Positions 1,641 to 22,634 are shown, counted from the first letter of the stretch. The stretch is 30,667 nt of DNA from an uncultured Candidatus Saccharibacteria bacterium (GCA_964486395.1 CAZALP010000001.1:1-30667), one strand, 5' to 3'. Notes: generated by a model from the letters alone, not told the origin. Numbers and translations are program-made.

Positions 1641-2963
1641 ATGGAAGATTTAATGCAGAAAATAATATCTTTGTGCAAACGGCGGGGGTTTGTGTATCCC
1701 TCATCTGAGATATACGGAGGATTTGGCTCAGGTTACGACTTCGGACCTTTGGGCGTGGAATTGAAAAACAATATCAAAAGCGCTTGGTGGGAGGAAATGA
1801 GAAAGAGGCATGATAATATCGTGGGTCTGGATTCTGCCATTTTGATGTCGCCCAAAATTTGGGAAGCTTCCGGGCACTTGACCGCCGGCTTTGCCGACGA
1901 GTTGGTGGAATGTAAAAAATGCCACAAACGCTTCCGCTTAGACAAAACGTACAGAGGCCGGGCCTATGTACGCTGTTTTGAGTGTGGAGGGGAGGTCACC
2001 AAGCCTCGTAAGTTCAACCTGATGATGAAGACTTTTGTGGGGCCGGTGGAAGATAAAGCTTCTACTGCCTACCTGAGGGCTGAAACCTGCCAAGGAATTT
2101 ATGTGAATTTTAACAATATTATTAATTCAATGAGGTTGAAGTTGCCTTTCGGAGTGGCTCAAATCGGCAAGGCTTTCCGCAACGAGATTACTCCCGGCAA
2201 CTTCATTTACCGAACTCGGGAATTCGAGCAAATGGAAATGCAGTGGTTTTGTAAGCCCGAGACAGCCCCCCAATTTTTCGAATACTGGAAAAAAGAAAGA
2301 ATGAAATGGTATTTGCAGTTGGGAATTAAAAAGGAAAATTTGAGAGCGAGAGAGGTTTCTCAGAAAGAATTGGCCCACTATGCCAAGAGGGTAGTGGATA
2401 TAGAGTACAAGTTTCCTTTCGGTTGGAAAGAGATTGAAGGAATCCACAACCGAGGAGACTGGGATTTGTCCAATCATTCCAAGCATTCTGGTCAAGACCT
2501 CAAATACGAGGGCTACTATCCGCATATTATTGAGACTTCCGGGGGAGCCGACAGGAGCTTTTTAGCGTTCTTGGTTGACGCTTTTCAAGAAATCAAAGGC
2601 GGGAGAAGCAAGACCACCGAATCTGTCAAGGAGGTGGAAACCGTGCTTAAACTTCACAAAGACTTGGCTCCGATCAAAGTCGCCGTCTTGCCTTTGGTGA
2701 AAAACAAGCCGGAATTAACTAAGAAAGCCAAAGAAGTTCACAAGCTGTTAAAGCCGCATTTTGCGATTCAGTACGACGAGGTGGGTTCTATTGGTCGTCG
2801 CTATCGCCGGCAAGATGAAATCGGTACTCTTTTTGCCGTTACCGTTGACTTTGATACTTTGAAGAAAAAAGACGTTACTTTGCGCGACCGCGACACCATG
2901 AAACAAAAAAGAGTGAAGATTAAGGATTTGGTTAAAATTCTAAAAGAAAAACTAGAGAATTAA
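1641..2963 (+). CDS. glyQS: Glycine--tRNA ligase, alpha2 (homodimeric) type
   Basis: YDFGPLGVELKNN, LRAETCQG, GKAFRNEITPG, RTREFEQMEMQ, IETSGG and the anticodon-binding SIGRRYRRQDEIG motif. Confidence 0.97.
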   Translation: MEDLMQKIISLCKRRGFVYPSSEIYGGFGSGYDFGPLGVELKNNIKSAWWEEMRKRHDNIVGLDSAILMSPKIWEASGHLTAGFADELVECKKCHKRFRLDKTYRGRAYVRCFECGGEVTKPRKFNLMMKTFVGPVEDKASTAYLRAETCQGIYVNFNNIINSMRLKLPFGVAQIGKAFRNEITPGNFIYRTREFEQMEMQWFCKPETAPQFFEYWKKERMKWYLQLGIKKENLRAREVSQKELAHYAKRVVDIEYKFPFGWKEIEGIHNRGDWDLSNHSKHSGQDLKYEGYYPHIIETSGGADRSFLAFLVDAFQEIKGGRSKTTESVKEVETVLKLHKDLAPIKVAVLPLVKNKPELTKKAKEVHKLLKPHFAIQYDEVGSIGRRYRRQDEIGTLFAVTVDFDTLKKKDVTLRDRDTMKQKRVKIKDLVKILKEKLEN

Positions 2964-3023
2964 ATCTAAAACATTCAGAATATAACATTTCTAAATCCCT
3001 TTTATAATTTAATACGGGCTTTT

Positions 3024-3051
3024 TTGTTTTTGGGAGGATTTGGGGTATAAT
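3024..3051 (+). promoter_or_regulatory. Putative sigma70 promoter for the M16 peptidase operon
   Basis: TATAAT at 3046-3051 with TTGTTT 16 bp upstream; ATG at 3064. Confidence 0.4.
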
Positions 3052-3063
3052 TTAGATAGGCAT

Positions 3064-4329
3064 ATGTACAAAAAGACCACGCTCAAGAACGGTTTAAGGA
3101 TAATTACCGTTTCCCAGAAAGGGACGCAGGCGGTGACGGTTTTGGTATTGGTGGGGACGGGTTCCAAGTACGAAACCAAAAAGACTTCGGGTATTTCCCA
3201 TTTTTTGGAACATATGCTGTTCAAAGGAACAAAAAAGCGCCCGGATAAACTGGAAATTGCCGAAACTTTGGATAAGATCGGGGGCATTTACAACGCTTTC
3301 ACGGGAGAAGATTATACCGGATACTTTGCCAAAGTGGCCTCTCAGAAGTTTGATTTGGCTTTGGATTGGGTTTCAGACATTTTCTTAAACAGTCTTCTTC
3401 CAGAGAGAGAAGTCAAAAGAGAAAAGGGAGTGATTATCGAAGAAATAAATATGCAGTATGACAACCCCATGTTGCACGTGGGGATTTTGTGGAACCAGCT
3501 TTTGTACGGAGATCAACCGGCGGGTTGGGACATCGCGGGAACCAAAGAAAGCGTATTGGGAATCAACCGCAAAGACCTTTTTAATTATATGAAAAGGCAG
3601 TATGTTGCCGCCAATACCGTTGTCTGCGTGGCAGGAAAAATAGACAATTCGCTTGCCGTGGAAAAAGTTAAGAAATATTTTTCTGGCATGGGAAACATTC
3701 CCCCGAAAGAAAAGCAAAAGGTCGTTGAGAAACAAAGCTCTCCTCAGTTGCTTTTGTATCCCAAGAAAACCGATCAAACCCATCTTTGCCTGGGAGTGCG
3801 GGGATACAATCTTTTTCATCCTCAAAAATATGTCCAAGATGTGCTGGGGATAATACTGGGGGGCATGATGAGTTCCCGCCTTTTCATAGAAATAAGAGAA
3901 AAGCTGGGCATAGCTTACTATATTAAGACCAACATTGATTCCAATCCCGATACGGGTTCTTTGTCAGCTCAGGCCGGGGTGGACAATAAAAACGTTGAAA
4001 AGGCCATCTCGGTGATTTTAAAAGAATACAAGAAAATTTCTCAAAAAATGGTTCCTTCGGCGGAATTAAAGAAGGCCAAAGACTACATCAAAGGGAAAAT
4101 GGCTTTGATGCTTGAGCCTTCTGATGCCTTGGCTTCCTTTTACGCCACGCAGGACCTTTTGAAAAAAGAAATCTTAACCTTAAAGGAAATTTATGCTAAA
4201 ATTGATAAAGTTTCAGCCAATGATGTTCAAAAAGTGGCCCGAAACATTTTTCGGTCCGATAATTTGAATTTAGCCATGGTGGGTCCTTTCAGAGATAAAA
4301 ATAAATTTAGGAAACTATTGAAACTATAA
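3064..4329 (+). CDS. M16 (pitrilysin/insulinase) family zinc peptidase
   Basis: Inverted zinc motif HFLEH, NAFT, EKGVIIEE and SSRLFIEIREKLGIAY. The start is placed at ATG 3064 (MYKKTTLKNGLR), typical of the family, rather than at 3040. Confidence 0.93.
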   Translation: MYKKTTLKNGLRIITVSQKGTQAVTVLVLVGTGSKYETKKTSGISHFLEHMLFKGTKKRPDKLEIAETLDKIGGIYNAFTGEDYTGYFAKVASQKFDLALDWVSDIFLNSLLPEREVKREKGVIIEEINMQYDNPMLHVGILWNQLLYGDQPAGWDIAGTKESVLGINRKDLFNYMKRQYVAANTVVCVAGKIDNSLAVEKVKKYFSGMGNIPPKEKQKVVEKQSSPQLLLYPKKTDQTHLCLGVRGYNLFHPQKYVQDVLGIILGGMMSSRLFIEIREKLGIAYYIKTNIDSNPDTGSLSAQAGVDNKNVEKAISVILKEYKKISQKMVPSAELKKAKDYIKGKMALMLEPSDALASFYATQDLLKKEILTLKEIYAKIDKVSANDVQKVARNIFRSDNLNLAMVGPFRDKNKFRKLLKL

Positions 4330-4332
4330 TTT

Positions 4333-5367
4333 ATGGAAAATCATAAGATTTTAGATATTTCTTGGGGCACTATTCTTAAAATCGCCGTTGCCTCTTTGGC
4401 TTTTTATATTCTCTTTTTGGTGAGAGATGTTATAATCTGGATTATTTTTGCTTTGATTATTTCGGTATTATTTAGCCCGGCCATTAATTTTTTTCATAAA
4501 AAAGGCATTCCTCGCGGGATAGCGGTAGTTTTGGTTTATATTTTCATTTTTGGAATTTTAGGTGTTTCTATTTGGATGATTGCCCCGGTTTTCGGCAAAG
4601 AGATCAAGAGTTTTTCCGATGACTTCCGCGTCTATTTCGAAGAAATATCCCCCCTCCTGAAAGGCTTAAAAATTGAAGCCTTTGAGAGTTTTGAGAAATT
4701 CACCTTAGCTGTTCAAAACTGGCTGGCTGACGCTTCAACCAATATTTTTACCGCCTTGGGAGCTATTTTCGGCGGGATTTTTGCCGCCATAACTATTTTT
4801 ACCATCGCTCTTTTTATTTCGCTTGAAGATAAAGGAGTAGAGAGAATGGTGGCAATTTTTACTCCCAAAAAATACGAAGCCTTCGTTTTAACTCTTTGGG
4901 AAAAAAGCCAAAGAAAAGTGTCGGGGTGGTTCGGGGCCAGAATTATTTCCAGCATTTTCGTAGGTTTGATGACTTTTGTGGTTTGTTCGGAATACGTTTT
5001 AAAAATAGATTATGCAGTTTCTTTTGCTTTTTTTGCCGGCGTCACCAATTTTATTCCCATTATTGGACCTTTGGCTGCCGGCGTTATCATTGCTTTATTG
5101 ACAGCTTTGGATTCTTGGCTTAAGGCTTTATTTGTTGTCGCAGCTTTTATTATCATTCAACAGATAGAAGGCAACATTTTAACCCCGATCTTGAGCAAGA
5201 GATTTGTGGGTCTTCCCCCGGTCCTGGTATTGATCGCTCTAATTGTGGGAGGAAAGCTCTGGGGAATTATGGGGGCGGTATTGGCCATACCCCTAGCCGG
5301 AATCTTATTTGAATTTCTAAGGGATTTTTTGAAAAAAAGAAAAGAAGAGAAAGCTGTAATCGTATGA
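4333..5367 (+). CDS. AI-2E family (PerM-like) transporter
   Basis: Multi-TM protein with NFIPIIGP, IIQQIEGNILTP and GGKLWGIMGAVLAIP motifs. Confidence 0.9.
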   Translation: MENHKILDISWGTILKIAVASLAFYILFLVRDVIIWIIFALIISVLFSPAINFFHKKGIPRGIAVVLVYIFIFGILGVSIWMIAPVFGKEIKSFSDDFRVYFEEISPLLKGLKIEAFESFEKFTLAVQNWLADASTNIFTALGAIFGGIFAAITIFTIALFISLEDKGVERMVAIFTPKKYEAFVLTLWEKSQRKVSGWFGARIISSIFVGLMTFVVCSEYVLKIDYAVSFAFFAGVTNFIPIIGPLAAGVIIALLTALDSWLKALFVVAAFIIIQQIEGNILTPILSKRFVGLPPVLVLIALIVGGKLWGIMGAVLAIPLAGILFEFLRDFLKKRKEEKAVIV

Positions 5368-6065
5368 GCACTTTATATGTTGTCGGCACTCCCATCGGGA
5401 ACCTTCATGATATTTCAGCAAGAGCCCTCGACGTTCTCAGAAACGTCGATTTAATTTTATGCGAAGACACCAGGGTGACCGCCAGATTGCTGGAACACTA
5501 TCAAATCAAAACCCCCACTTTAAGTTATCACCAGCATTCAAAACTAAAGAAAGTAGAAAACGTAATTCAGTTCCTGAAAGAGGGGAAAGATTTAGCTTTG
5601 GTTTCGGATGCGGGCACTCCGAGCATTTCCGATCCCGGCTCAAAGCTGATTGAGAAAATAATTGAAGAGAAATTGACTTCGGTTAAAATCACATCTGTGC
5701 CCGGCCCTTCAGCTCTTACAACGGCAGCTTCTGTTTCCGGATTTCCCATGGATAAATTTTTGTTTCTCGGTTTCCCGCCTGCAAAAAAGAAGAGAAAGAA
5801 ATTTTTCGAAGAAGCGGCCAACTCAAGATATCCCGTAATTTTCTATGAATCTCCCTATCGGATAATAAAAACTTTAAAAGAATTACAGGAGGCGTTGATT
5901 TATAGCGATCGTCATAAATCAGCAACATTGGTGGTTTGCCGCGAACTAACCAAAAAATTCGAAGCGATTTACCGAGGCAAAGTTGAGGAGGTGATAAAAA
6001 AAATAGAAAGAGATAAAATAAAAGGAGAGTTTGTTATAGTTGTTAGCTCTAAATATGAAAAATAA
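5364..6065 (+). CDS. rsmI: 16S rRNA (cytidine1402-2'-O)-methyltransferase
   Basis: LYVVGTPIGNL, CEDTR, SDAGTPSISDPG, PGPSA, YESPYR and RELTKKFE motifs; ATGA overlap with the upstream gene. Confidence 0.95.
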   Translation: MSTLYVVGTPIGNLHDISARALDVLRNVDLILCEDTRVTARLLEHYQIKTPTLSYHQHSKLKKVENVIQFLKEGKDLALVSDAGTPSISDPGSKLIEKIIEEKLTSVKITSVPGPSALTTAASVSGFPMDKFLFLGFPPAKKKRKKFFEEAANSRYPVIFYESPYRIIKTLKELQEALIYSDRHKSATLVVCRELTKKFEAIYRGKVEEVIKKIERDKIKGEFVIVVSSKYEK

Positions 6066-6098
6066 AAAAAGTGGGCGGTTGTTATACCGCTACCACTT
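6064..6098 (-). terminator. Intrinsic terminator of the DUF3307-like gene
   Basis: On the minus strand, AGTGG(ta)GCGGT...ACCGC-CCACT is followed by a long T run; it sits between convergent genes. Confidence 0.7.
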
Positions 6099-6473: not shown

Positions 6474-6530
6474 GACATGCCCTCCTTGTCTATTTTGTCG
6501 TTCTAAATGAGCTTACCGCCGAGATTTAAA

Positions 6531-6559
6531 AGCTTAGCAAATTAACTTAAATCTGTCAA
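6531..6559 (-). promoter_or_regulatory. sigma70 promoter of the DUF3307-like gene
   Basis: TTGACA-17 bp-TAAGCT with an extended TG on the minus strand; the -35 overlaps the stop codon of the upstream gene. Confidence 0.65.
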
Positions 6560-7049: not shown

Positions 7050-8501
7050 ATGACAAAGAAAAAGTTTTATATCTCAACTAGTATAGCTTATACTAATGCT
7101 CCTCCGCATATAGGTTATGCATTAGAGATAATCCAGGCAGATGTGATAGCTAGATATCGGCGGCTTTTGGGCGAAGATGTTTTCTTTTTGACCGGAACTG
7201 ATGAGCATGGGAGAAAGGTGGTAGAAGCAGCTAAAGAGGCAGGGAAAAGCCCTAAAGATTTTACGGACTTGCTTGCAAAAAAATTCAAAAAATTGACCGA
7301 AACTTTAAATATCTCTAATGACGATTTTATTCGCACTACCGATCAAATAAAACATTGGCCATCAGTAAGGAAAGTTTGGTTGGCATTAAGGGAAAACGGC
7401 GATATTTACAAGAAGAAATACAAGGGGTTTTATTGTGTCGGTTGCGAGGCATTTATTACAAAAAAGGATTTGGAAAGCGGTAAATGCAGAATTCACCAAA
7501 AAGAACCTGAAATAGTTGAAGAAGAAAATTATTTTTTCCGGCTTTCCAAATATTCAAAAAAGATAGAAGAGGTTATCAAAAAAGACAAAATTAGAATTAT
7601 TCCCGAGAGCCGAAAGAATGAGATGTTGAGTTTTCTCAGGCAAGGCTTGGAAGACATTAGTTTTTCTCGGCCTAGAAAAGACTTAAAGTGGGGGATACCA
7701 GTACCGGATGATAAAAGTCAGACGATATATGTCTGGGGAGACGCTTTAACCAATTATATTTCAGCTCTTGGTTATTCAAAAAATAGCAAAAAATTTAAAA
7801 AGTTTTGGCCAGCTGATGTTCATTGCATTGGCAAAGATATTCAAAAGTTCCATTGTTTGATTTGGCCGGGAATGTTGTTGTCTTTAGGTTTAGACTTGCC
7901 GAAAAATATTCTGGTTCACGGATTCATCACTGTTAATGGGCAGAAAATGTCAAAGAGCTTGGGGAATGTTATTGATCCTTTTGAATTGGTTGAGAAATAC
8001 GGAATGGATCCCGTGAGATATTTTCTCTTGCGGGAGATTCCGCCGACGGAAGATGGAGACTTTACGCGCGAAAAATTTGAGGGGCGCTATAATTCTGACT
8101 TGGCAAAAGGGCTCGGGAATTTGGTTGCCAGAGTAATAAAAATGGCGCAAATTTCTAATTTCCAATTTTTAATTTCCAATAAATTTTCAAAAACCCACTG
8201 TTCCCACACAGCCAAATTCAAAGCGGAAATAAACAAAACCTGGAAAGAATACCATCGTCTCTTTAACGAGTTTCGGTTTAATGAGGTATTAATGGCGGTT
8301 TGGGAATTGATCGGTTTTTGCGACAAATATATTGAGCAAAAGAAGCCGTGGGAAACCAAGGACAAGAAAGTTATCGGTGATTTATTGCTCGCCCTGAATC
8401 ATATTGCTGAAATGTTAAGGCCGTTTTTGCCGGAAACTTCGGAAAAAATATTGAAACAAATAAAAAATAAAAAAAGTCAGTCTTTATTTCCAAGGATTTA
8501 A
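7050..8501 (+). CDS. metG: Methionine--tRNA ligase (short form, no C-terminal tRNA-binding domain)
   Basis: YTNAPPHIGY (HIGH-like), FLTGTDEHG, knuckle CVGC...CRIH, WGIPVP, YVWGDAL and KMSKS. Confidence 0.97.
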   Translation: MTKKKFYISTSIAYTNAPPHIGYALEIIQADVIARYRRLLGEDVFFLTGTDEHGRKVVEAAKEAGKSPKDFTDLLAKKFKKLTETLNISNDDFIRTTDQIKHWPSVRKVWLALRENGDIYKKKYKGFYCVGCEAFITKKDLESGKCRIHQKEPEIVEEENYFFRLSKYSKKIEEVIKKDKIRIIPESRKNEMLSFLRQGLEDISFSRPRKDLKWGIPVPDDKSQTIYVWGDALTNYISALGYSKNSKKFKKFWPADVHCIGKDIQKFHCLIWPGMLLSLGLDLPKNILVHGFITVNGQKMSKSLGNVIDPFELVEKYGMDPVRYFLLREIPPTEDGDFTREKFEGRYNSDLAKGLGNLVARVIKMAQISNFQFLISNKFSKTHCSHTAKFKAEINKTWKEYHRLFNEFRFNEVLMAVWELIGFCDKYIEQKKPWETKDKKVIGDLLLALNHIAEMLRPFLPETSEKILKQIKNKKSQSLFPRI

Positions 8502-9409
8502 TGTTGATCGATACTCACGCGCATTTGAATTTTAGCGCTTTTAGGAACGATGTCGACGAAGTGATCCGCCGGTCTTTAGGTAATGAATTTTTTGCGAAAG
8601 CAAAAAATTACAGGAGTGGTCGGGAGAGTTGGGTATCCTCCCGCGATGGAAAACCAGCGAGCCGAAGGCGAGCGCCAGAAACCGAAGGCGTCTGGGGAGC
8701 AAAGCGGGAGCGGAACGACGTTTGGATGATTAATGTCGGCTCTCAATTGACTACCAGCAAAAGAGCTGTAAAAATCGCCGAGCAATACGAAAAAGGAGTT
8801 TATGCCGCTGTTGGCCTGCACCCCATTTATGCCCAAGAAAAATTTCAATATGAAAAGTTCAAGGAGCTGGCAAAATCAAAAAAAGTGGTAGCCATTGGAG
8901 AAATCGGCCTGGATTATGAGCCAGAATATGCCCCGTTCGCAGAAAAACAGAAGGAAGTTTTCCGTCAGCAAATGAATATGGCCATAGAATTGGACCTGCC
9001 CGTGATTTTTCACTGTCGCAAAGCGCACGATGATCTTATAGAAGTTTTGTTACAATGGAACAATAATTATACACCTGTAGATTTATTACACCGGGGAGTG
9101 GTTCATTGCTTTACCGGGAAATGGAGCCAGGCAGAAAAATTCTTAGGGATGGGGATGTATTTGGGTTTTAACGGGATAATATTTAAGCTGAATTTGGATG
9201 AAATTATCAAAAAAGTTCCTCTGGATAGAATTTTGATTGAAACCGATTGTCCTTTTTTGACCCCGCCTCAAAAAAGAGGTCGGAACGAGCCGGCCTATGT
9301 AAAATATGTGGCAGAGAAAATTGCTAAAATCAAGAATTTGGATTATAAAGAAATAGCCAAGATTACCACCCAAAATGCCAAAGAGCTGTTTAAAATTATG
9401 GAGAGATAG
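8501..9409 (+). CDS. tatD: TatD family metallo-hydrolase/DNase with an N-terminal insertion of about 44 aa
   Basis: DTHAH, GLHP, GEIGLD, FHCR, HCF, ETDCP and RNEP motifs are intact; extra segment at residues 29-72. Confidence 0.93.
   Translation: MLIDTHAHLNFSAFRNDVDEVIRRSLGNEFFAKAKNYRSGRESWVSSRDGKPASRRRAPETEGVWGAKRERNDVWMINVGSQLTTSKRAVKIAEQYEKGVYAAVGLHPIYAQEKFQYEKFKELAKSKKVVAIGEIGLDYEPEYAPFAEKQKEVFRQQMNMAIELDLPVIFHCRKAHDDLIEVLLQWNNNYTPVDLLHRGVVHCFTGKWSQAEKFLGMGMYLGFNGIIFKLNLDEIIKKVPLDRILIETDCPFLTPPQKRGRNEPAYVKYVAEKIAKIKNLDYKEIAKITTQNAKELFKIMER
8585..8716. mobile_element. In-frame 132-bp structured insertion in tatD (REP/MITE-like)
   Basis: 10-bp perfect stem with GAAA loop (8586-8609), CGGGAG/CTCCCG stem, CCAGA/TCTGG stem and CCGAAGGCG twice; the length is a multiple of 3. 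Boundaries are estimated from the TatD consensus. Confidence 0.6.
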
Positions 9410-10740: not shown

Positions 10741-10762
10741 ATTAAACGCTCGGCGATAAGAT

Positions 10763-10907
10763 TCGGAATTAGTCGCACGAAAAACCGCAGTCGCTCGTCC
10801 AGCGCGCTCGCGCTGCTCGAACCTCGGGCTCGCTCTTCTGCCAGACACTTTGGCAGAAACCACGCCCGCTCGCCCTGCGGAACGTTTTTCTTAGCGACTG
10901 ATTCCGA
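10763..10907. ncRNA. GC-rich multi-branched structured element between glyA and folD (ncRNA or REP-like; function unknown)
   Basis: 14-bp closing stem (10763-10776/10894-10907), 7-bp GAAAAAC/GTTTTTC stem, CGCAG/CTGCG stem, two inner hairpins and five GCTCG motifs. Confidence 0.5.
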
Positions 10908-10918
10908 GTTCACTAATT

Positions 10919-11686
10919 ATGGCTATTATTTTGGACGGCAAAAAATTATCAGAAAAGATTTTAGAGGATCTTAGAAAGAAGATTAAAAAGAGCGGCAAAA
11001 AGTTAAAACTTGCCGCTGTTTTGGTTGGGGAAGATGAACGATCAAAGATTTTCCTTCGTCAGAAAGAAAAAGCCTGTAAAAAAGTCGGCGTTGACTTTAA
11101 GCTTTACCAGTTTTCCCAAGATATTGGCCAGGAAAAATTAGCCAAAGAAGTAAAGACGATAGGGCGTCACAAATTATGCCATGGCATAGTTATTCAGCTG
11201 CCTCTGCCAGAATATATTAATGCCAATGAAATTTTATCTTTAATTCCGCCGGAAAAAGACGTTGATGCGCTTTCTGGCAAAGCTCTTGTTTTGTCGCCGG
11301 TTTTGGAGGGTATTCTGGAATTACTGAAAGAATACAAAATAGAGCTTAAAGGTAAAAAAGTGGCAGTCGTCGGCAGAGGAAGACTGGTGGGGGAACCGGT
11401 TGCCACCTGGTTTTTAAAACAAGGAATTGAGGTTGTGGAAAATGTCGAGGAAGCTGACGTTATCATTTCCGGAGTTGGCAAGCCGGGATTTGTCATTAAC
11501 GGCAATATAATAAAAGAAGGGGCGGTGGTAATTGATGCCGCAGGGGATGTAGATTTTGATAGTGTGGAAAAAAAGGCGAGCTACATCACTCCCGTTTTCG
11601 GAGGCGTAGGCCCCATGACGGTCGCCATGGTTATTAAAAACCTTATCGTTTTAAACAAGGTTTACCCGGGTAGATTTATGGGTTAA
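10919..11686 (+). CDS. folD: Methylenetetrahydrofolate dehydrogenase/cyclohydrolase (streamlined)
   Basis: ILDGKKLS, QLPLP, EKDVD, VGRGRLVGEP, ADVIISGVG, VID and GGVGPMTVAM motifs. Confidence 0.93.
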   Translation: MAIILDGKKLSEKILEDLRKKIKKSGKKLKLAAVLVGEDERSKIFLRQKEKACKKVGVDFKLYQFSQDIGQEKLAKEVKTIGRHKLCHGIVIQLPLPEYINANEILSLIPPEKDVDALSGKALVLSPVLEGILELLKEYKIELKGKKVAVVGRGRLVGEPVATWFLKQGIEVVENVEEADVIISGVGKPGFVINGNIIKEGAVVIDAAGDVDFDSVEKKASYITPVFGGVGPMTVAMVIKNLIVLNKVYPGRFMG

Positions 11687-11691
11687 AATAA

Positions 11692-14190
<2,499 letters not shown>

Positions 14191-16094: not shown

Positions 16095-17618
16095 ATGATG
16101 CAAAAAACCATTTTAATTGGTGGGGAAGCCGGGCTCGGGACGGCTGTCACCTCCCATCTTATCGGAAAAATATTTTGCAGCTTGGGATATTACGTTTTTA
16201 ATTACCGGGATTATCCTTCTTTGATCCGGGGAGGGCATAATTTTAATGTTCTCAGGATTTCTGACAAACCCATTCATTCTCACGAAGAAAAATACGACAT
16301 TATTTTGGCCTTGGACCAAAAAACCGCCGATATTCATGAAAAGGATTTGAATAAAGGCGGTTTTGTTTTTGGAGTTAAAGAGACAGAACCCGTACTTCAA
16401 AAGCTACAAGGCCCCAAGATATTGGCTAATGACGTTTTGATAGGGCTGCTTTTTAAATATTTCGGAGTGGATTTGAAAGTTGTGATGTCCGCAGCCGAAA
16501 AAGAGTTCGGTCAAAAATCGAAATTAATCAAGCAAGCTATCGAGGAGGGCTACGGGCTGACAGACGTAAAGGAAAAGCTGGAAAAAGTCGACAAGGAAAA
16601 ATACTTTATTTCCGGCAACGAAGCCATAGGCATAGGGTCTATTGCCGGGAATGTGGATATACATTTGGCCTATCCCATGACTCCCGCGAGTCCTGTTCTT
16701 CATTTTTTGGCCAAAAATCAGCTGGAAAATAACATTTTGGTTTTTCAGCCGGAGAACGAAATCGCAGTTATCAATGCGGCTTTGGGAGCCTCTTTCACAG
16801 GCGCCAAGGTTCTGGTGGGAACATCGGGCGGAGGCTTTGCTTTAATGACAGAAGCTGTAAGCCTTGCGGGCATGGCGGAATTGCCAATAGTTATTTATTT
16901 AGCCCAGAGGACGGCTCCTTCTACCGGAGTTCCTACTTACACCGCCCAGGGAGATTTAAAATTCGCTTTGAATGCGGGGCACGGCGAATTCGCCAGAATT
17001 GTGGTGGCTCCCGGCGATCCACAGGAAGCCATCATCAGAACCCAGGAGGCCTTTTATTTAACCTGCAAATACAGGACGCCAGCAATTATTTTGGGCGACA
17101 AACATTTGGGGGAATCAAATTACACTTTTGACGAACTTAAAAAATCTCAATTAGCGGGTGTTTCTCACCCGGTGGACAGGGCCAACAGTTATGAACATTC
17201 AGAAAATGGCCACACCGTGGAAGACGCAGAAAGCGTAGCCAGAGGTCAGGAAAAAAGATTGAGCAAGATGCCGTTGATTGAAAAAGAAATTCAGAAGCTA
17301 AATCCCGTTGCTGTTTACGGTAAGGGTAATAATTTAATTGTCAGTCACGGCTCGACAAAGGGAGCCATCCTGGACGCCTTACCTGAACTTCCGGACTTCA
17401 GATTTTTACAAATTTCCTATTTGAGCCCGTTTCCCCGGGAGCAGGTTTCCGATGAAATCAAAAAGTCACAAAAAGTGATTTTGGTGGAAAATTCAGCCAC
17501 GGGCGCTTTGGCCGACTTCATCGCCGAGCAAACCGGTTTAATCATAAAAAACAAAGTTTTAAAGTATGATGGCCGACCCTTCACCCCCGATTATCTTATA
17601 AAAAACATTGTAATATAA
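16095..17618 (+). CDS. 2-oxoacid:ferredoxin oxidoreductase alpha subunit (gamma-like domain fused)
   Basis: IGGEAG, YPSLIRGGHN, SGNEA, YPMTPAS, ENEIA, TSGGGF, QRTAPSTGVPT. The start may be 16095 or 16098. Substrate cannot be assigned from sequence. Confidence 0.93.
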   Translation: MMQKTILIGGEAGLGTAVTSHLIGKIFCSLGYYVFNYRDYPSLIRGGHNFNVLRISDKPIHSHEEKYDIILALDQKTADIHEKDLNKGGFVFGVKETEPVLQKLQGPKILANDVLIGLLFKYFGVDLKVVMSAAEKEFGQKSKLIKQAIEEGYGLTDVKEKLEKVDKEKYFISGNEAIGIGSIAGNVDIHLAYPMTPASPVLHFLAKNQLENNILVFQPENEIAVINAALGASFTGAKVLVGTSGGGFALMTEAVSLAGMAELPIVIYLAQRTAPSTGVPTYTAQGDLKFALNAGHGEFARIVVAPGDPQEAIIRTQEAFYLTCKYRTPAIILGDKHLGESNYTFDELKKSQLAGVSHPVDRANSYEHSENGHTVEDAESVARGQEKRLSKMPLIEKEIQKLNPVAVYGKGNNLIVSHGSTKGAILDALPELPDFRFLQISYLSPFPREQVSDEIKKSQKVILVENSATGALADFIAEQTGLIIKNKVLKYDGRPFTPDYLIKNIVI

Positions 17619-17657
17619 TTTTGCCGATCGGTAAAAAAGTATTATAAGGGAATTTTT

Positions 17658-18515: not shown

Positions 18516-19470
18516 AAAAATCGTTTGTCTGGGCGGGGGAAATGCCATGCCGAAAGCCGTGCTTGAGGGATTGAAAAATTATCCTCTGCAGATTTCGGTA
18601 ATTTCGGCCATGCTTGATTCGGGGGGATCTGCCGGGCGGGAGAGAGATTATTTCAAAACTAAAGTGTCTTTTGGCGATTTCCGCCGGGCAGCTTTGGCTT
18701 TATCCGGTGCGCCCCCGGAGAAAAAAGAAATACTGGCTTCTCGCCTCAAGGACGGTCCCCTGGAGAATCACGTTTTAGCCAATCTTTATTGTTCTTCTTT
18801 TGTAACGGCTGCCAACAATTTTGAGCAATCTATGGAAGAGCTGGAAGAAGAAATTAAAGAAGATTTGGAAATTCTGCCCAGGCATGAGCTTTTGCCGGCC
18901 ACTCTTGACGACGCCACCCTTTGCGTAGAATTGGACAACGGGCAAATTATTAAAGGAGAGGGTAATATAGACGTTCCCAAGCATGACGGCAAAATAGGAA
19001 TAAAGAGGATATTTTTGGAGCCCGAAGCCAAAGCATACCCAAAAGCCCTGGCCGAAATTAAAAAAGCAGATTTAATAGTTATCGGCCCGGGGGATTTGTT
19101 TTCTTCCCTGATCCAGATTTTATTAGTCCGAGGAATCCCCGAAGCTATTAAGAAAAGCAAAGCCACAAAAGTCTATATCTGCAATTTAATGACCAAAAAC
19201 GGCGAAACTAACAATTTCTCGGTTTTGAATTTCGCCGGAGAGATTGAAAAATTGTTGGCAGACAGATTGGACTTCGTAATTTACAATAATTCTTTTCCCA
19301 GAAAAGAGATAATCGAAAAATATAAAAAAGATCATCCTCAATTTCTGGAACCGGTTCCCTTCGACCAAGCTTCTTTGCCCTCTAATTTCATAGGCCTGGA
19401 TTTATTGAGACCCGGCCTTCTGGAGCACGACCCTCAAAAAATATCCGATATTCTAATTTCCATAATATGA
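18493..19470 (+). CDS. YvcK/GlmR (CofD-related) uridine-diphosphate-sugar-binding protein
   Basis: IVCLGGG, DSGGSAG, GDFRR, GEGNID, IGPGDLFSSL, YICNLMT and HDP motifs; overlaps the beta subunit gene by 23 bp. Confidence 0.88.
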   Translation: MLSINLNKKIVCLGGGNAMPKAVLEGLKNYPLQISVISAMLDSGGSAGRERDYFKTKVSFGDFRRAALALSGAPPEKKEILASRLKDGPLENHVLANLYCSSFVTAANNFEQSMEELEEEIKEDLEILPRHELLPATLDDATLCVELDNGQIIKGEGNIDVPKHDGKIGIKRIFLEPEAKAYPKALAEIKKADLIVIGPGDLFSSLIQILLVRGIPEAIKKSKATKVYICNLMTKNGETNNFSVLNFAGEIEKLLADRLDFVIYNNSFPRKEIIEKYKKDHPQFLEPVPFDQASLPSNFIGLDLLRPGLLEHDPQKISDILISII

Positions 19471-20687
19471 TTTCCCAAGTTGTAATTTTGGCTGCGGGTG
19501 AAAGTTCCCGCTTTTGGCCGCTGAATTACCGGCATAAGGCTCTTTTTAAAATAATGGGTAGGCCTTTGATTTGGTATACGCTGGATGGCTTCAAAAAGGC
19601 AGGGATTAAGGAAGCTGTTATCGTTCAGGGGCCCCAAAAAGAAATCCAGCAGGGATTGAAAAACTATGTTTTTCCCAACTTAAAGTTGAATTACGTCATC
19701 CAAAAAAAACCCAAGGGAATGGGCGATGCTCTGTTTCAGGCTAAAAATTCACTAAAAGACAGGTTCTTTGTTGCGCATGCTCATCGTTTGGATGCCCCAG
19801 AGTATATCAAGCCTTTGAAATCGGAAAAAGCCTCCTTGGTTTTGTTTGCGGTAAAAACAGCCACCCCCTACCTTTACGGAGTTTTAGAATTCCAGGGGAA
19901 CAAAGTGAAGAGAATCGTTGAACAGCCAAAAAAGGGAAAGGAGCCTTCCGATTGGGGGGTGAGAGGATTTTATCTTTTGTCCAAAGATTTCTTCGATTAT
20001 TACACAAAAGTGAGAGGGGGGCGCTACGACTTTGAAAAGACTCTTAATTTATTAATTAAATACAAGGGAGCCAAACTGGTGAAGACCAATAAAGAGGAAT
20101 TAAATTTGAAATACCCTTGGCATTTGTTTTCCGTCTCTCAGTATCTGATGCAGAATTACTTGAAATCAAAGATTTCCAAGTCCGCTGCCGTTGCTAAAGA
20201 CGCTGTGATTAAGGGGCCAGTATACATTGGAGAAAGAGTCAAGGTTTTCGAAGGAGCTGTAATCAAAGGCCCTTGCTATATCGGAGACGACTGCATGATA
20301 GGAAGCAATTCTATAGTCAGAGATAATACCAATCTGGAAAAGAATGTTTTAATCGGAGCTTTGAGCGAAGTGACCCGCTCCATTTTTCAGGAAGGCGCTC
20401 ATTGTCACTCCGGATATTTCGGAGACTCGGTTTTCGGAGAAAATTGCCGATTGGGAGCGGGAACCGTAACAGCCAACGTCAAATTGGACAGGGGAGAGAT
20501 AAAATCTACCGGTTTGAGTTCTCTGGGAGCAATCGCGGGAAAAAATACCAACATAGGAATCAATGCTTCTTTGATGCCAGGCGTTTTGATCGGATCAAAT
20601 TGCACAGTTGGTCCGGGTTCAGTAGTTTTTGATAATGTTAAAGATAATCAAGTGCACTTTACCAAATTCCAGACCTTGACCCGGTAG
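19467..20687 (+). CDS. Sugar-1-phosphate nucleotidyltransferase with C-terminal left-handed beta-helix (archaeal GlmU-like)
   Basis: VILAAGESSRFWPL, KALFKIMGRPL, YPWHL and hexapeptide repeats including HSGYFGDS and GAGTVTAN. Confidence 0.85.
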   Translation: MISQVVILAAGESSRFWPLNYRHKALFKIMGRPLIWYTLDGFKKAGIKEAVIVQGPQKEIQQGLKNYVFPNLKLNYVIQKKPKGMGDALFQAKNSLKDRFFVAHAHRLDAPEYIKPLKSEKASLVLFAVKTATPYLYGVLEFQGNKVKRIVEQPKKGKEPSDWGVRGFYLLSKDFFDYYTKVRGGRYDFEKTLNLLIKYKGAKLVKTNKEELNLKYPWHLFSVSQYLMQNYLKSKISKSAAVAKDAVIKGPVYIGERVKVFEGAVIKGPCYIGDDCMIGSNSIVRDNTNLEKNVLIGALSEVTRSIFQEGAHCHSGYFGDSVFGENCRLGAGTVTANVKLDRGEIKSTGLSSLGAIAGKNTNIGINASLMPGVLIGSNCTVGPGSVVFDNVKDNQVHFTKFQTLTR

Positions 20688-20756
20688 TGAAATTTTAACA
20701 GGATTTCCGAAACGGAAATTTTATCCACGACGTGGGTCAAAATTCTACCACCGGAT
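20679..20756. repeat. Inverted-repeat-bounded element, copy 2 (ACCCGGTAGTGAAA...AATTCTACCACCGGAT)
   Basis: Same termini as 1570-1640 with a different interior: ATTTCCG-aaa-CGGAAAT and CCAC-gac-GTGG hairpins. It contains the TAG stop of the GlmU-like gene. Confidence 0.75.
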
Positions 20757-20814
20757 TGATAAAAAAAGAGATAATCTGATAAGATGTAATATCGTTAACA
20801 AAAGGAGGTGTCGA

Positions 20815-21024
20815 ATGCTTATCATTGAAAAGAATTCCACGTGGTTGGGCAAAGGGGCGATTGTTCCGACGAAAAAAGAACTTGAGGTGATTATTCATGC
20901 TCTTATAGAAGAGTATGACCAAGTAGTCCGCAGCGGTGGAAATCGTTACGGACCGATGGATCATCTCGAAATGAAAGCTTTAATAGAAGAATTACAAAAA
21001 TACAAGACAGAAAGGGGCTTATAG
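20815..21024 (+). CDS. Small hypothetical protein (69 aa)
   Basis: Strong SD AAAGGAGGTG at 20801-20810, TGaTAAGAT extended -10 at 20777-20785, and a hairpin plus T tract over the stop. No family recognised. Confidence 0.75.
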   Translation: MLIIEKNSTWLGKGAIVPTKKELEVIIHALIEEYDQVVRSGGNRYGPMDHLEMKALIEELQKYKTERGL

Positions 21025-21065
21025 TCCCCTTTTCGTTTTTAGGAAATAGGTTAGAGTAAAATAAT

Positions 21066-21611
21066 ATGGAGATTATAAAGCCCAATCTTGGGAAGGCGGC
21101 AATGGCGATAAAAGAGGGGAAGGTTTTGGTTTGTCCCACGGATACAGTTTACGGGCTGATTTGTGATGCCGGAAATAAAAAGGCCCTTGAAAGACTGTAT
21201 AAGATAAAAAAAAGATCCAGAAAAAAACCGATTCCCATTTTCGTCGGAAGCATTAGGATGGCAAAAAAGCTGGCTCGCATCAGCGGGGAGCAGGAGGAAT
21301 TTTTAAGGAAAGTCTGGCCAGGCAAAATGACAGTGGTTTTGGAAAGAAAGAAAGGAGGGACCGTTGGTTTGAGGGTGCCCAATTACGCTTTTGTGTTGAA
21401 TTTGATCGGGAGGGTCAACCGTCCCCTGACAGGCACTTCCGCCAATATTTCCGGCCAGCCGGCCTCGACGAAAGTTAAAGAAGTCCGGGAACAATTTAAT
21501 AATCGGAGGCCTCAACCTGATCTGATTATTGATGCTGGCAATTTGCCTCCTTCCAAGCCGTCTACTGTAATTGATTTAACCATATGGCCGCCAAAAATAT
21601 TAAGAAATTAA
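21066..21611 (+). CDS. tsaC: L-threonylcarbamoyladenylate synthase (short TsaC/YrdC type)
   Basis: PTDTVYGL, LYKIKKR, GLRVP, TSANISG and PSTVIDL motifs; no Sua5 C-terminal domain. Confidence 0.94.
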   Translation: MEIIKPNLGKAAMAIKEGKVLVCPTDTVYGLICDAGNKKALERLYKIKKRSRKKPIPIFVGSIRMAKKLARISGEQEEFLRKVWPGKMTVVLERKKGGTVGLRVPNYAFVLNLIGRVNRPLTGTSANISGQPASTKVKEVREQFNNRRPQPDLIIDAGNLPPSKPSTVIDLTIWPPKILRN

Positions 21612-21623
21612 AACGTTAGTTTT

Positions 21624-22634
21624 ATGCGTATTTTAGGTATAGATACTTCCTGCGACGATACAGCCGTTGCTTTATTAAAGGTTGGCAATTCGAAGTTCGA
21701 AATTTTGAGCAACATTGTTTCGTCACAAGTAAAAATCCATCAAAAATATGGCGGAGTTTACCCTTTTTTAGCCAAAAGAGAACATCAGAAGAATTTGCCC
21801 ATAGTTTTGAAAAGCGCCATTAAAGGATACAAATTTTCCAACATTGACTTGATTGGAGTGACGGTAGGGCCTGGCTTGGAGCCATGTCTTTGGCAGGGAA
21901 TAAATTTCGCTAAAGAAATTGCAAGAAAACACAAAAAGCCGTTAATCCCCGTAAATCACATCGAAGCCCACATTCTCGCTAATTTCATTAATCGCAGTTC
22001 AACCGCGATTAAATTTCCGGCGGTGGCTTTAGTGGTAAGCGGCGGGCACACGCAGTTAGTTTTAATAAAGAAGATTGGTCAATATAAACTGATTGGCGAG
22101 ACGAGAGATGATGCGGCAGGGGAATGTTTTGATAAGGTAGCTAGAATTCTCGACTTGGGATACCCTGGCGGTCCCGCTATTGCCGCTCAGGCAGCAAAAT
22201 TTAAAAAGGACAAAAACTATACAGGTGTAGAATTATTGTACTCTTTGCCGAGACCGATGATTAAGCAGAAAAATTACGATTTCAGTTTCTCCGGGCTCAA
22301 AACTGCGGTATTATATAAAGTGAAGGAAAAGAAATACAACAAAAAAGCTATGGCAGCTGAAGTTCAACAGGCAATTATTGATGTTTTAATTTATAAAACA
22401 TTGAAAGCCGTCAAAGATTACAAGGTGAAATCAGTACTTCTTGGGGGAGGTGTGGCCGCCAATGACGAATTAAGGAAGCAATTCCGAAAAAAGACCAAAA
22501 TTTTTGTTCCCCCTAAAAACTTATGCACAGACAATGCAGCCATGGTGGCGGCAACCTGCTATTTCCACAGAAAAGAAAGAAAGAAATTAGAAGGCATTAA
22601 GGCCGACGCCAACTTTAGAATTAAAAATTTATAA
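21624..22634 (+). CDS. tsaD: tRNA N6-adenosine threonylcarbamoyltransferase
   Basis: LGIDTSCDDT, TVGPGL, NHIEAH, VVSGGHT, DDAAGECFDK, FSFSGLKT, GGVAAN, TDNAAM. Confidence 0.96.
   Translation: MRILGIDTSCDDTAVALLKVGNSKFEILSNIVSSQVKIHQKYGGVYPFLAKREHQKNLPIVLKSAIKGYKFSNIDLIGVTVGPGLEPCLWQGINFAKEIARKHKKPLIPVNHIEAHILANFINRSSTAIKFPAVALVVSGGHTQLVLIKKIGQYKLIGETRDDAAGECFDKVARILDLGYPGGPAIAAQAAKFKKDKNYTGVELLYSLPRPMIKQKNYDFSFSGLKTAVLYKVKEKKYNKKAMAAEVQQAIIDVLIYKTLKAVKDYKVKSVLLGGGVAANDELRKQFRKKTKIFVPPKNLCTDNAAMVAATCYFHRKERKKLEGIKADANFRIKNL

Follow-up and report, generated by a model that had tools for sequence, protein, structure and literature searches.

Short palindromes are in several-fold excess in the coding DNA of the window (the whole 30,667-nucleotide stretch of DNA analysed here) and of related Patescibacteria, lie in frame in variable loops of housekeeping enzymes, and turn over among relatives. 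A subset belongs to sequence families whose best copies, found in the relatives, bracket a gene for a small winged-helix and Cas2-like (PaaX_M) protein. As an overall explanation we propose fold-back copying filtered by selection, together with a family subset tied to the PaaX_M protein, and we give this combination about an even chance of being correct.

Excess of palindromes in coding DNA

Nine palindromes had been listed in an earlier, sequence-only reading of the window, and a sequence check found all nine in place in correctly named genes (Table 1); the folD palindrome was missing from that list. The nine measure 17-46 nt, with a spacer of 0-2 nt in seven and of 5 nt in the other two. Their OFOR alpha member lies below all scan thresholds and is by itself consistent with chance: simple probability predicts dozens of similar hairpins in 30 kb, so it is not significant alone.

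Table 1. Palindromes and repeat elements in the window. L-numbers are loci of relatives; self-complementarity is given as matching positions over length.
Feature	Position	Strand	Self-complementarity	Description
glyQS palindrome	1948..1972		22/25	CGTACAGAGGCC g GGCCTATGTACG; 11/12 pairs; codons 103-111; within Cys-rich insertion
rsmI palindrome	5894..5923		24/30	codons 177-187; loop 7-11 codons shorter in L003 and L004
metG in-frame repeat element	8130..8250	+		(AATTTCN) heptamer array 8150-8180; 18-nt core CCACTGTTCCCACACAGC 8195-8212
tatD in-frame insertion	8582..8716	+		about 44 codons; present in L004; absent from L001 and L003
tatD loop palindrome	9062..9087		20/26	AATAATTATACA cc TGTAGATTTATT; codons 188-196; loop 3-4 codons longer than in relatives
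folD palindrome	11172..11191			AATTATGCCATGGCATAGTT; perfect 14-bp core 11175-11188; right arm is conserved H-G-I codons
leuS partial core copy, inverted	12409..12421	-		GTGAACAGTGGGC; same loop in L003 has the full core in forward orientation
leuS palindrome	12805..12833		22/29	arms TTAACGAAG / CTTCGTTAA; 5-nt loop; codons 370-379; hypervariable linker
leuS in-frame core element, other reading frame	13634..13689	+		partial duplicate 13653-13665; core 13666-13683
leuS CCATGG-centred palindrome	13831..13876 (core 13839-13868)		24/30	codons 712-727; right arm enters conserved I-K-T-L-L codons
leuS perfect palindrome	13927..13949		22/23	TGTGTAATGTC t GACATTACACA; codons 744-751; three codons longer than L001 and L004
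OFOR alpha hairpin	17155..17171		12/17	CGGGTG tttct CACCCG; 6-bp arms, 5-nt loop
tsaD palindrome	21988..22012		22/25	TTAATCGCAGTT c AACCGCGATTAA; codons 122-130
tsaD loop palindrome	22211..22238		20/28	codons 196-205; at least 4 codons longer than in relatives
Intergenic palindrome after PAP2 gene	24436..24477			two-copy family with 28610-28667
Intergenic CCATGG-centred palindrome	28610..28667			58 nt; between relA and topA

Excess was assessed in coding DNA only, against 400 shuffles of each of five codon-preserving kinds, among them permutation within 10- and 20-codon blocks. At a strict score of at least 9 the window holds seven palindromes where 1.2-2.2 are expected (about 3-6-fold, P<=0.0025), and at a loose score of at least 10 it holds eight where 2.0-2.7 are expected (P<=0.005). 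Three syntenic relatives contain 16 palindromes for 3.4 expected and thirteen further Patescibacteria loci contain 39 for 12.4; across 20 related Patescibacteria loci an excess of 3-7-fold recurs. Sixty other leuS loci, which served as controls, show a weak excess of 1.5-fold (82 palindromes for 55.6 expected). The palindrome excess is a property of the clade. It is also not a product of assembly, because strain variants from three assemblies are 99.8-100% identical; their proteins are identical and the loops carry no strain differences.

Placement in variable loops and turnover among relatives

When aligned proteins are ranked by conservation windows, all nine palindromes fall in the lowest 24% and five in the lowest 2.1% (Fisher P=3.6e-7). 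Four strong palindromes lie in stringently defined loops, which cover 5.3% of the aligned coding DNA and would be expected to hold 0.08 (0/150 shuffles), and six palindrome sites coincide with indels relative to the closest relatives. The sequence-only reading had placed the palindromes in tolerant loops, which the analysis supports, as it does a density above that of codon-preserving shuffles. We consider it extremely improbable that the palindromes reflect chance and a reader's readiness to see symmetry, or an artefact of assembly or amplification. The OFOR hairpin is within chance, and tatD 9062 and tsaD 22211 are loose palindromes whose imperfect symmetry is unremarkable taken singly, their resemblance to each other being their chief notable feature. 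However, the identical proteins of the three assemblies stand against an artefact, and for the whole set chance is refuted by the shuffle test under five null models, by replication in 20 independent related loci and by the loop enrichment.

The same loops carry different sequences in different genomes. Unrelated palindromes or 7-nt arrays occupy four LeuS loops, two TsaD loops and one TatD loop in different relatives, which agrees with the recurrent process that had been suggested from the window alone. At leuS 13839, L003 has an unrelated perfect 29-bp palindrome, L004 a quasi-palindrome and further relatives 7-nt arrays; at leuS 13927, L003 forms 8 of 11 pairs and in L029 an unrelated perfect palindrome of 30 bp is inserted there. 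In the tsaD 22211 loop L001 carries (AAATTCG)3, L003 carries ATACACGGGTT c AACCCGTGTAT and L099 a 33-nt palindrome built of heptamers, and at tsaD 21988 the L001 copy has a different single mismatch. Palindromes common to the window and L001 are 85% identical, against 80% for genes. Since they have diverged about as far as the genes, mostly by changes on one side only, they do not demonstrate active maintenance.

Dyads in DNA or hairpins in mRNA

The palindromes had been described as dyads of double-stranded DNA rather than RNA hairpins, and their short spacers and mismatch bias agree with that description. None of the nine is followed by a T-run, as a terminator would be, and no Rfam match was found. 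Hairpins formed in mRNA, serving stability, ribosome pausing or attenuation within operons, are a very unlikely explanation. Some palindromes do have 4-5 nt loops, all but four genes are co-oriented in long operon-like runs, and the tatD insertion opens with a perfect hairpin (8586-8609, 10-bp arms) whose GNRA-type loop is GAAA in the window and GGAA in L004. However, 44 of 87 clade palindromes have spacers of 0-2 nt, the sequences are not kept at a given position, and sense-strand A.C mismatches outnumber G.T mismatches by 45 to 20, compared with 157 to 177 in shuffles. We have no explanation for this excess of A.C over G.T.

Proposed local copying by template switching

We hypothesize that coding DNA in the tiny-genome Candidatus Nealsonbacteria lineage of the window, and that of related Patescibacteria, keeps gaining short inverted repeats and regaining their symmetry. 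Short-range template switching would copy one arm from the other by fold-back, as the inverted counterpart of the slippage that would build 7-nt tandem arrays in the same loops. Purifying selection would spare only events of multiple-of-three length in loops that tolerate almost any sequence, and because the genomes are about 95% coding, such loops would be nearly the sole refuge for this kind of DNA.

Template switching is described, in passages of three papers, as homogenising the arms of inverted repeats, coding DNA included (PMC5941160, PMC8604942, PMC8794818). Two patterns are consistent with it here. In the first, one arm consists of conserved codons and the other lies in a variable part, as with the H-G-I codons of folD, the I-K-T-L-L codons of leuS 13839 and the I-L-A-N codons that form the left arm of another palindrome at the tsaD 21988 site in L003. 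In the second, a palindrome that is perfect in one genome is quasi-palindromic in a relative, with the differences clustered in an arm (glyQS, leuS 13927, folD), and L003 and L004 differ in the leuS 13839 loop by three adjacent two-sided changes. The glyQS site has no indel relative to L001, whose quasi-palindrome forms 8 of 12 pairs, and five of the seven differences are in the right arm; the orthologous rsmI copy in L001 is a better palindrome than that in the window. The closest relative of the window has a fourfold-site identity of about 0.60, a distance too great for polarising the putative template-switch events.

Some observations stand against template switching. Both arms are new relative to every relative in tatD 9062, tsaD 22211 and the leuS palindromes of L029 and L020, and these cases look more like insertion of a ready-made palindrome. 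Local copying also leaves unexplained the similarity of the tatD and tsaD palindromes and a 40-nt identity between ligA and pilD. Fold-back copying and mini-element insertion, which the sequence-only reading had both offered, are still viable, and the evidence suggests that each accounts for part of the set.

Sequence families, a dispersed core element and heptamer arrays

For most palindromes, about 450 kb of related DNA holds no second copy. A family-like spread had been claimed for the whole set; it holds for tatD 9062 with tsaD 22211, for rsmI with palindromes elsewhere in the L001 genome, and for folD with the type found in L003 and L099, and fails for glyQS, leuS 12805, leuS 13927 and tsaD 21988, which have no paralogous copy in those 450 kb. 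The tatD palindrome matches tsaD 22220-22239 at 19 of 20 positions. Per half-site, 16/18 positions agree between the L001 rsmI palindrome and those on either side of its own genome's PaaX_M gene (L007), and likewise between the L011 pilD palindrome and the L003 type. Scores between palindromes, which this kind of comparison inflates, reach 23 for the window's folD copy against the palindrome bracketing the L003 PaaX_M gene (28/36 identical; null maximum near 11.7), 17 for the window's rsmI copy against the L007d palindrome, and 17 for tatD 9062 against the palindrome upstream of the L102 PaaX_M gene, a match that is marginal per half-site (11/12); each was reached by 0/200 shuffles. The strict family pattern is rare outside PaaX_M gene flanks across 108 loci (20-70 kb per genome) and never occurs in the window.

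A separate 18-nt core is inserted in frame in metG, leuS, tsaD, ligA and pilD, and the element is identical over 40/40 nt between ligA and pilD of one genome. The metG element is identical to that of L001 at 120/121 positions, against 80% identity genome-wide, and the leuS 13634 element is a 12-codon insertion relative to L001. In-frame heptanucleotide arrays are widespread. The tatD insertion of about 44 codons is 92% identical to that of L004 over 120 nt, and intergenic leader-like elements of L003, L007 and L008 align with its 3' part.

A palindrome-bracketed PaaX_M gene

The PaaX_M gene has a copy of a lineage-specific palindrome on each side in all nine relatives' loci examined, and two PaaX_M paralogs in one genome have two palindrome types. 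The protein, of about 187 residues, combines a winged helix with a Cas2-like domain. It matches Pfam PF20803 (the PaaX central Cas2-like domain) and the NCBIfam cas2 and PaaX models, with cas2 model TIGR01573 just above cut-off, and its structure model superposes on Cas2 and on PaaX (8a39). It differs from these in lacking the PaaX C-terminal domain and in having no CRISPR array, cas1 or phenylacetate genes nearby; its N-terminus is hydrophobic and poorly modelled. At least 1397 homologs were found (E <= 1e-10); their annotation wavers between Cas2, PaaX and hypothetical protein, and those that are named belong to Patescibacteria. The upstream palindrome ends 2-37 nt before the start codon in eight of the nine loci and about 65 nt before the called start in the other (L104).

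The window encodes no PaaX_M gene and, as the sequence-only reading had noted, no mobilising enzyme. That reading had also proposed looking for a Y1/HUH transposase (RAYT, IS200) flanked by the same palindromes. None was found, and such an identity for the cognate gene is ruled out by its matches to the PaaX_M, cas2 and PaaX models and its Cas2-like fold. The arrangement of palindrome and gene resembles, by analogy, REP-RAYT or operator-regulator pairs.

Mobile units or protein-binding sites

Could most palindromes be REP/REPIN/RPE-like units inserted ready-made, mobilised by the bracketed winged-helix/Cas2-like protein and surviving in frame in loops because intergenic space is almost lacking? 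We think this unlikely, although it is the strongest of the alternatives. Such a reading would accommodate the bracketing itself and the paralogs' separate palindrome types, the family members within rsmI, pilD, folD, tatD and tsaD, the loops in which both arms are new, and the 18-nt core, which is demonstrably dispersed. A palindrome-gene-palindrome cassette is moreover present in L003 and L099 and missing from the same site in the window and L001. However, most palindromes are singletons in the sampled DNA, the strict family pattern is almost confined to gene flanks, and the PaaX_M gene sits at conserved chromosomal positions. The conserved codons in the right arm of folD fit growth in place better than insertion. 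Traces of insertion and excision were also lacking: no flanks are duplicated at any of the nine sites, no terminal inverted repeats of MITE type occur at the nine palindromes, and no presence/absence polymorphism was seen among the strains of three assemblies. We know of no Cas2-like or PaaX protein that acts as a transposase.

PaaX is a repressor that binds dyad sites. The palindromes might be selected binding sites of dimeric DNA-binding proteins (operators, roadblocks or chromosome-organising sites), placed where coding sequence permits. In the relatives the flanking palindromes abut the start codon of the winged-helix gene, a position expected of auto-regulated operators, the PaaX-like fold belongs to a dyad-binding repressor, and the full folD site is built on a pre-existing half-site. 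The arms of leuS 12805 are identical in the window, L001 and L003 although silent sites are near saturation (fourfold-site identity of just 0.44-0.60). As an account of the whole set we nevertheless find this improbable, and more so than mobile units. Many unrelated sequences, GC-rich ones included, form the palindromes, and neither position nor sequence is kept beyond close relatives (leuS 12805 itself is absent from L004 and more distant relatives). One-sided changes in shared palindromes occur at about the background rate, and there is no evident reason for operators within tatD, tsaD, rsmI or leuS.

We return to fold-back copying with a distinct family subset, which would comprise rsmI 5894, folD 11172, tatD 9062, tsaD 22211 and perhaps leuS 13839. 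Most likely a dimer of the PaaX_M protein recognises these putative sites, and it may either spread them in the manner of REP-RAYT systems or employ them like a regulator with its operators. A bolder possibility, which we hold tentatively and lean against, is a previously undescribed Patescibacteria system in which a small dimeric winged-helix/Cas2-like protein, always palindrome-bracketed, would recognise short dyad elements and propagate them through a genome that is almost wholly coding. Together with unusually active slippage and template switching (heptamer arrays, the 18-nt core), it would continually rewrite the surface loops of essential enzymes, as a Cas2-fold analogue of REP-RAYT that generates loop diversity.

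Implications and comparison with known systems

If our proposal is correct, most of the sequence in the lineage-specific loops of Patescibacteria housekeeping proteins would come from repeat processes at the DNA level (inverted copying, 7-nt slippage, tiny dispersed elements) and not from ordinary point substitution. It would bear on the reading of insertions in CPR proteins and on how markers such as LeuS, MetG and TsaD are aligned and used in phylogeny. Tests of positive selection would be affected as well, because clustered changes can stem from single events. The bracketed gene offers a specific candidate, open to testing, for a new family of palindrome-associated proteins, and these genomes a natural setting for how compact genomes accommodate selfish or regulatory dyad DNA.

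RPEs are roughly 100-150 nt long, and the tatD insertion, RPE-like in size, comes closest to them; the palindromes described here are 17-46 nt, mostly single-copy instead of forming a conserved multi-copy family, and belong to a different phylum. What they share with RPEs and in-frame MITEs (e.g. Coxiella QMITEs, PMC5896051; review PMC10969869) is palindromic DNA inserted in frame at tolerated positions in the housekeeping genes of a reduced genome. The comparison with REP/REPIN-RAYT differs in that the gene encodes PaaX_M and not a Y1 transposase, and that the copies, in the 20-70 kb sampled per genome, are apparently few and degenerate instead of numbering hundreds, and lie inside genes instead of between them. 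REP sequences also feature a GTAG motif, which is absent here. The likeness to REP/REPIN-RAYT (PMC3116915) consists of imperfect palindromes of 20-40 nt and of a vertically inherited, single-copy gene that lies between two copies of its own palindrome type, with paralogs having their own types.

Passages of four papers on quasi-palindrome template switching (PMC5941160, PMC8604942, PMC8794818, PMC7202029) likewise describe an over-representation of perfect short inverted repeats and clustered multi-nucleotide changes that match the other arm, replacing neighbouring amino acids in coding DNA. Here the excess is much larger than in control bacteria and restricted to loops; it is often accompanied by insertions several codons long and occurs together with 7-nt arrays. 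Cyanobacteria are said to have heptanucleotide STRR repeats and small dispersed repeats (work attributed to Mazel in 1990 and Elhai in 2008), and there too 7-nt arrays have tiny dispersed elements nested in them. Tandem repeats within ORFs of Borgs (PMC9879509) similarly create new protein segments, with unit lengths divisible by three, whereas the units here are 7 nt and lie in essential genes; 7-nt units do not fit the triplet frame one by one, so that only the length of the whole array preserves it. Outside coding DNA, the palindrome at 24436 is terminator-like in its position and its A/T-run flanks.

A clade-level excess of palindromes

We hypothesize that a short-range copying of DNA, both inverted and direct and acting across the whole lineage, would make the palindromes and repeats of this region, that selection would then confine the copied segments to tolerant loops, and that some of the palindromes are putative recognition sites for the winged-helix/Cas2-like protein whose gene they bracket. 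This is the most likely of the explanations considered, and we put it at about even chances. Literature searches turned up no account of these palindrome and repeat features in Patescibacteria. The sequence-only reading had proposed that palindromes are written in frame into variable enzyme loops by a mini-element or by fold-back; the excess and the loop placement are confirmed and extended, and its interpretation is supported in part, mobilisation and fold-back copying being candidate processes.

The window is an entire contig of 30,667 bp from Candidatus Nealsonbacteria (Patescibacteria), with a G+C content of 42% and about 95% coding. Its genes, correctly named in that reading, run glyQS, M16 peptidase, AI-2E transporter, rsmI, metG, tatD, glyA, folD, leuS, glmS, the alpha and beta subunits of a 2-oxoacid:ferredoxin oxidoreductase (OFOR), yvcK, archaeal-type glmU, tsaC, tsaD, MFS transporter, PAP2 phosphatase, parA and parB, followed on the opposite strand by relA and topA. 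Three assemblies supply strain variants of LeuS and TatD with 99.8-100% identity, so the features of the window are not assembly artefacts; no indel polymorphism occurs at the LeuS and TatD loops among these variants, recent events being invisible at this closeness.

All nine palindromes proposed earlier were recovered where they had been placed, seven of them with spacers of 0-2 nt. That in the OFOR gene has arms of 6 bp and is at chance level taken alone, and those at tatD 9062 and tsaD 22211 are loose. The window was scanned under two scoring schemes, counting only intragenic palindromes, against five null models with 400 shuffles apiece: synonymous codons shuffled over whole genes or inside 40-codon blocks, and codons permuted over whole genes or in 20- or 10-codon blocks. 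At a strict score of at least 9 its genes hold 7 palindromes against 1.3-2.2 expected (P<=0.0025), and at a loose score of at least 10 they hold 8 against 2.0-2.7 (P<=0.005). Density is thus above the codon-shuffled controls, the reverse of the outcome that the sequence-only reading had named as counting against it.

The comparison set comprised three syntenic relatives (L001, whose LeuS is 83% identical, L003 and L004), further contigs of the L001 genome and 80 metagenome leuS loci, the last, with closest relatives at 68%, serving as clade and control sets rather than for event tracing. Observed and expected numbers were 7 and 1.2 in the window (ratio 5.8), 16 and 3.4 in the syntenic relatives (4.7), 7 and 1.0 in the other L001-genome contigs (7.2), 39 and 12.4 in 13 Patescibacteria loci with LeuS at least 55% identical (3.1, P=1e-9), and 82 and 55.6 in 60 other loci (1.5). 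The palindrome excess is a clade-level property.

Positions of palindromes, repeats and PaaX_M cassettes (LeuS and TsaD positions are residues)
Feature	Locus	Position	Remark
Palindrome	window glyQS	1948	
Palindrome	window rsmI	5894	
Palindrome	window tatD	9062	
Palindromes	window leuS	12805, 13839, 13927	
Palindrome	window OFOR	17155	
Palindromes	window tsaD	21988, 22211	
Palindrome	window folD	11172-11191	absent from the sequence-only list
18-nt core	window metG	8195-8212	in frame
18-nt core	window leuS	13666-13683	reading frame other than that in metG; 13653-13683 with partial duplicate
18-nt core, partial inverted copy	window leuS	12409-12421	
18-nt core	L003 leuS (twice), tsaD, one spacer	9097, 10714, 11980, 20479	
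18-nt core	L007, L008, L011, L013, L014		
Heptanucleotide arrays	window	8150-8180, 12529-12549, 13634-13652	
Heptanucleotide arrays	L003, L004, L019-L029, L060		many sites
PaaX_M cassette	L003	17008-17672	
PaaX_M cassette	L007	7076-7739	
PaaX_M cassette	L099	8971-9594	
PaaX_M cassettes	L100-L105	around 10000	
LeuS loop	window	712-727	palindrome centred on CCATGG
LeuS loop	L003	712-727	perfect 29-bp palindrome, unrelated to the window's
LeuS loop	L004	712-727	quasi-palindrome; three adjacent two-sided changes from L003
LeuS loop	L019, L020, L025, L026, L029	712-727	7-nt tandem arrays
LeuS loop	window	744-751	perfect palindrome
LeuS loop	L003	744-751	8/11 pairs
LeuS loop	L029	744-751	unrelated 30-bp perfect palindrome
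LeuS loop	L020	647-675	42-nt perfect palindrome
LeuS loop	L022, L025, L029	647-675	7-nt arrays
LeuS loop	window, L003	647-675	dispersed core element
TsaD loop	window	196-205	palindrome
TsaD loop	L003	196-205	different palindrome
TsaD loop	L001	196-205	(AAATTCG)3
TsaD loop	L099	196-205	33-nt palindrome built of heptamers

Placement and turnover in loops

In codon alignments with relatives each palindrome lies where conservation is poor, as the sequence-only reading had proposed, and six of the nine sites coincide with indels. By conservation window, the nine all rank within the lowest 24%, and five of them within the lowest 2.1% (Fisher P=3.6e-7). Stringently defined loops make up 5.3% of the aligned coding DNA and hold 4 strong palindromes against 0.08 expected (reached in 0/150 shuffles); in the rest, which is conserved, there are 4 where 1.5 are expected.

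Within given LeuS and TsaD loops the repeat-structured DNA differs between genomes, and an alignment of 27 LeuS sequences shows the three leuS sites to be linkers of variable length. At silent sites, the window has an identity of 0.60 with L001 and of 0.44 with L003 or L004. Palindromes common to the window and L001 are about 85% identical, against 80% overall, with mostly one-sided differences; the arms of leuS 12805 are the exception, being identical in three genomes. Among palindromes common to relatives there are 4 two-sided and about 21 one-sided changes, too few to tell selection from homogenisation.

Proposed local copying and the mobile-unit rival

Several arms reach into conserved codons. 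The right arm of the folD palindrome consists of the universally conserved H-G-I codons, and its left arm of variable residues upstream, with one codon more than in L001; the tsaD palindrome of L003 has conserved I-L-A-N codons on the left and variable V-G-K-N on the right; and the right arm of leuS 13831-13876 in the window extends into conserved I-K-T-L-L codons. The glyQS, leuS 13927 and folD palindromes are nearer perfect in the window than in the relative, and the differences are clustered. Conserved-codon arms with clustered differences match the known signature of template switching between inverted-repeat arms. Published work describes this process as enriching and conserving perfect repeats in Proteobacteria and as producing multi-residue replacements in yeast genes (PMC5941160, PMC8604942).

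The main rival, that most palindromes arrive as mobile units like the Rickettsia palindromic elements or the RAYT-linked REP palindromes, seems to us rather unlikely.

The evidence on the proposed family-like spread is divided: some palindromes cluster (tatD with tsaD; rsmI with L007, a contig of the L001 genome), but most are unique. The tatD 9062 and tsaD 22211 palindromes have 19/20 nt in common, and in L001 the orthologous rsmI palindrome agrees with a pair of intergenic L007 palindromes at 16/18 per half-site. When palindromes flanking the PaaX_M gene were matched to the window and scored against 200 block-shuffles of it, the type found in L003 and L099 matched folD (identity 28/36; a score of 23 where the null reaches about 11.7 at most, 0/200 shuffles), and the L102 type matched tatD and the L007 type rsmI, each with a score of 17 that 0/200 shuffles reach. 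Such palindrome-against-palindrome scores count each half twice; per half-site, the folD (12/13), L001 rsmI (16/18) and L011 pilD (prepilin peptidase, 16/18) matches are robust and the tatD match (11/12) is marginal. Searched by BLAST against every locus fetched, the palindromes gave hits to orthologues only, tatD/tsaD excepted. Over 108 loci a strict family pattern is nearly confined to the flanks of the PaaX_M gene, which argues against a perfect-form, high-copy REP-like family; it has no occurrence in the window.

The PaaX_M gene and its flanking palindromes

A gene of about 190 codons lies between the two L007 palindromes, and likewise between two identical palindromes of 34-36 bp in L003; its product matches Pfam PF20803 (PaaX_M), which is the central, Cas2-like domain of PaaX. 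At E <= 1e-10 the family numbers at least 1397 homologs; those bearing a name are Patescibacteria, and their annotation varies between Cas2, PaaX and hypothetical. With seven further loci fetched beyond L003 and L007, the gene, of about 187 codons, lies between two copies of a lineage-specific long palindrome in 9/9 loci. L101 and L103, which are paralogs from a single genome, have different palindrome types. Its positions are conserved, between recG and pilM in three genomes and between OFOR-beta and yvcK in two; the window and L001 lack it at the latter junction, and the window has none anywhere. No cas1 or CRISPR array lies near the gene.

Against NCBIfam, the protein scores slightly over the cut-off of the cas2 model, and it also matches PaaX residues 40-140. 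Its AlphaFold model, confident for residues 105-189 only, superposes on Cas2 structures with TM-scores of 0.5-0.67 (normalised to target) and on E. coli PaaX across 139 columns. By these profile matches and superpositions it is a winged helix joined to a Cas2-like domain; as a predicted dimer, such a protein would be suited to a dyad site.

RNA, terminator and phage readings

The suggestion that these are dyads of double-stranded DNA rather than RNA hairpins is borne out. Spacers of 0-2 nt occur in 44 of 87 intragenic palindromes of the clade, and sense-strand arm mismatches in the same 87 comprise 45 A.C and 20 G.T (157 and 177 in shuffles), so the wobble-compatible strand is the antisense one. 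Selection for mRNA hairpins predicts the opposite bias. Rfam searches of the window and ten loci matched tRNA and rRNA only, and terminator and promoter scans flagged none of the nine palindromes, none being terminator-like. Scans of viral contigs gave one match to the L099-type palindrome and two to the 18-nt core treated below, from which we take the elements not to be phage-borne.

Two intergenic palindromes of the window, at 24436-24477 and 28610-28667, have AAAAACTCGAAATAACAAC..GTTGCGATTTCGAGTTTTT in common; each is found at the end of a gene and has the look of a bidirectional terminator. CCATGG forms the centre of the second, whose outer ends, CGTTAATAA..TTATTTTACG, are similar to the pilD palindrome of L011.

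Core element, heptanucleotide arrays and other features

An 18-nt core, CCACTGTTC-N-CACACAGC, usually flanked by AT-rich 7-8-nt arrays, is truly dispersed. It lies in frame within metG, leuS, tsaD, ligA and prepilin peptidase genes, in three reading frames and both orientations, as well as in spacers, and Rfam gave no match to it. At least 7 copies occur in the L001 genome; those in ligA and pilD are in frame, identical over 40/40 nt and have palindromic AATATTCG flanks. A parS site, DnaA box, LexA box or uptake signal was weighed, by eye, as a putative identity of the core, which is at least 18 nt long.

Period 7 accounts for 47 of 115 tandem arrays scoring at least 40 in Patescibacteria coding DNA (277 kb) and for 16 of 144 in other loci (869 kb). 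Eleven of those 16 belong to L028, L030, L031, L033, L034 and L039 (LeuS 51-54% identical), which may also be CPR; in non-CPR loci heptanucleotide arrays are nearly absent and array periods are multiples of three. The arrays typically have about 4.5 units (30-35 nt) and lie within essential genes. Their units differ between genomes and change in concert within an array, and loop length is kept between relatives.

About 44 codons are inserted in frame in tatD (8582-8716); the insertion is common to the window and L004 (92% over 120 nt) and absent from L001 and L003. It begins with a GNRA-type-loop hairpin, GAAA in the window and GGAA in L004, and towards its 3' end it is similar to leader-like elements with an RBS that lie between genes in L003, L007 and L008. 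The glyA-folD spacer (10741-10918, 178 nt) is GC-rich, has long complementary stretches and no Rfam match, and is 92.7% identical to that of L001, above the 80% of the genes on either side; a leader or riboswitch of folD not described before may lie here. Between glmU and tsaC, a 378-nt non-coding gap (20688-21065) carries a terminator-like hairpin at 21010-21033, and L001 has two small genes there, one for a GNAT acetyltransferase and one for a protein with a zinc ribbon. Three unrelated genome records (L005, L006 and L017, from Rhizobiaceae, Thalassococcus and Alcanivorax) have near-identical sequence on either side of a chance match to the core, which suggests shared contaminant or vector-like DNA in those assemblies. 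Right after leuS, a 65-nt unit that includes a hairpin is perfectly duplicated in tandem in L004 (12419-12556).
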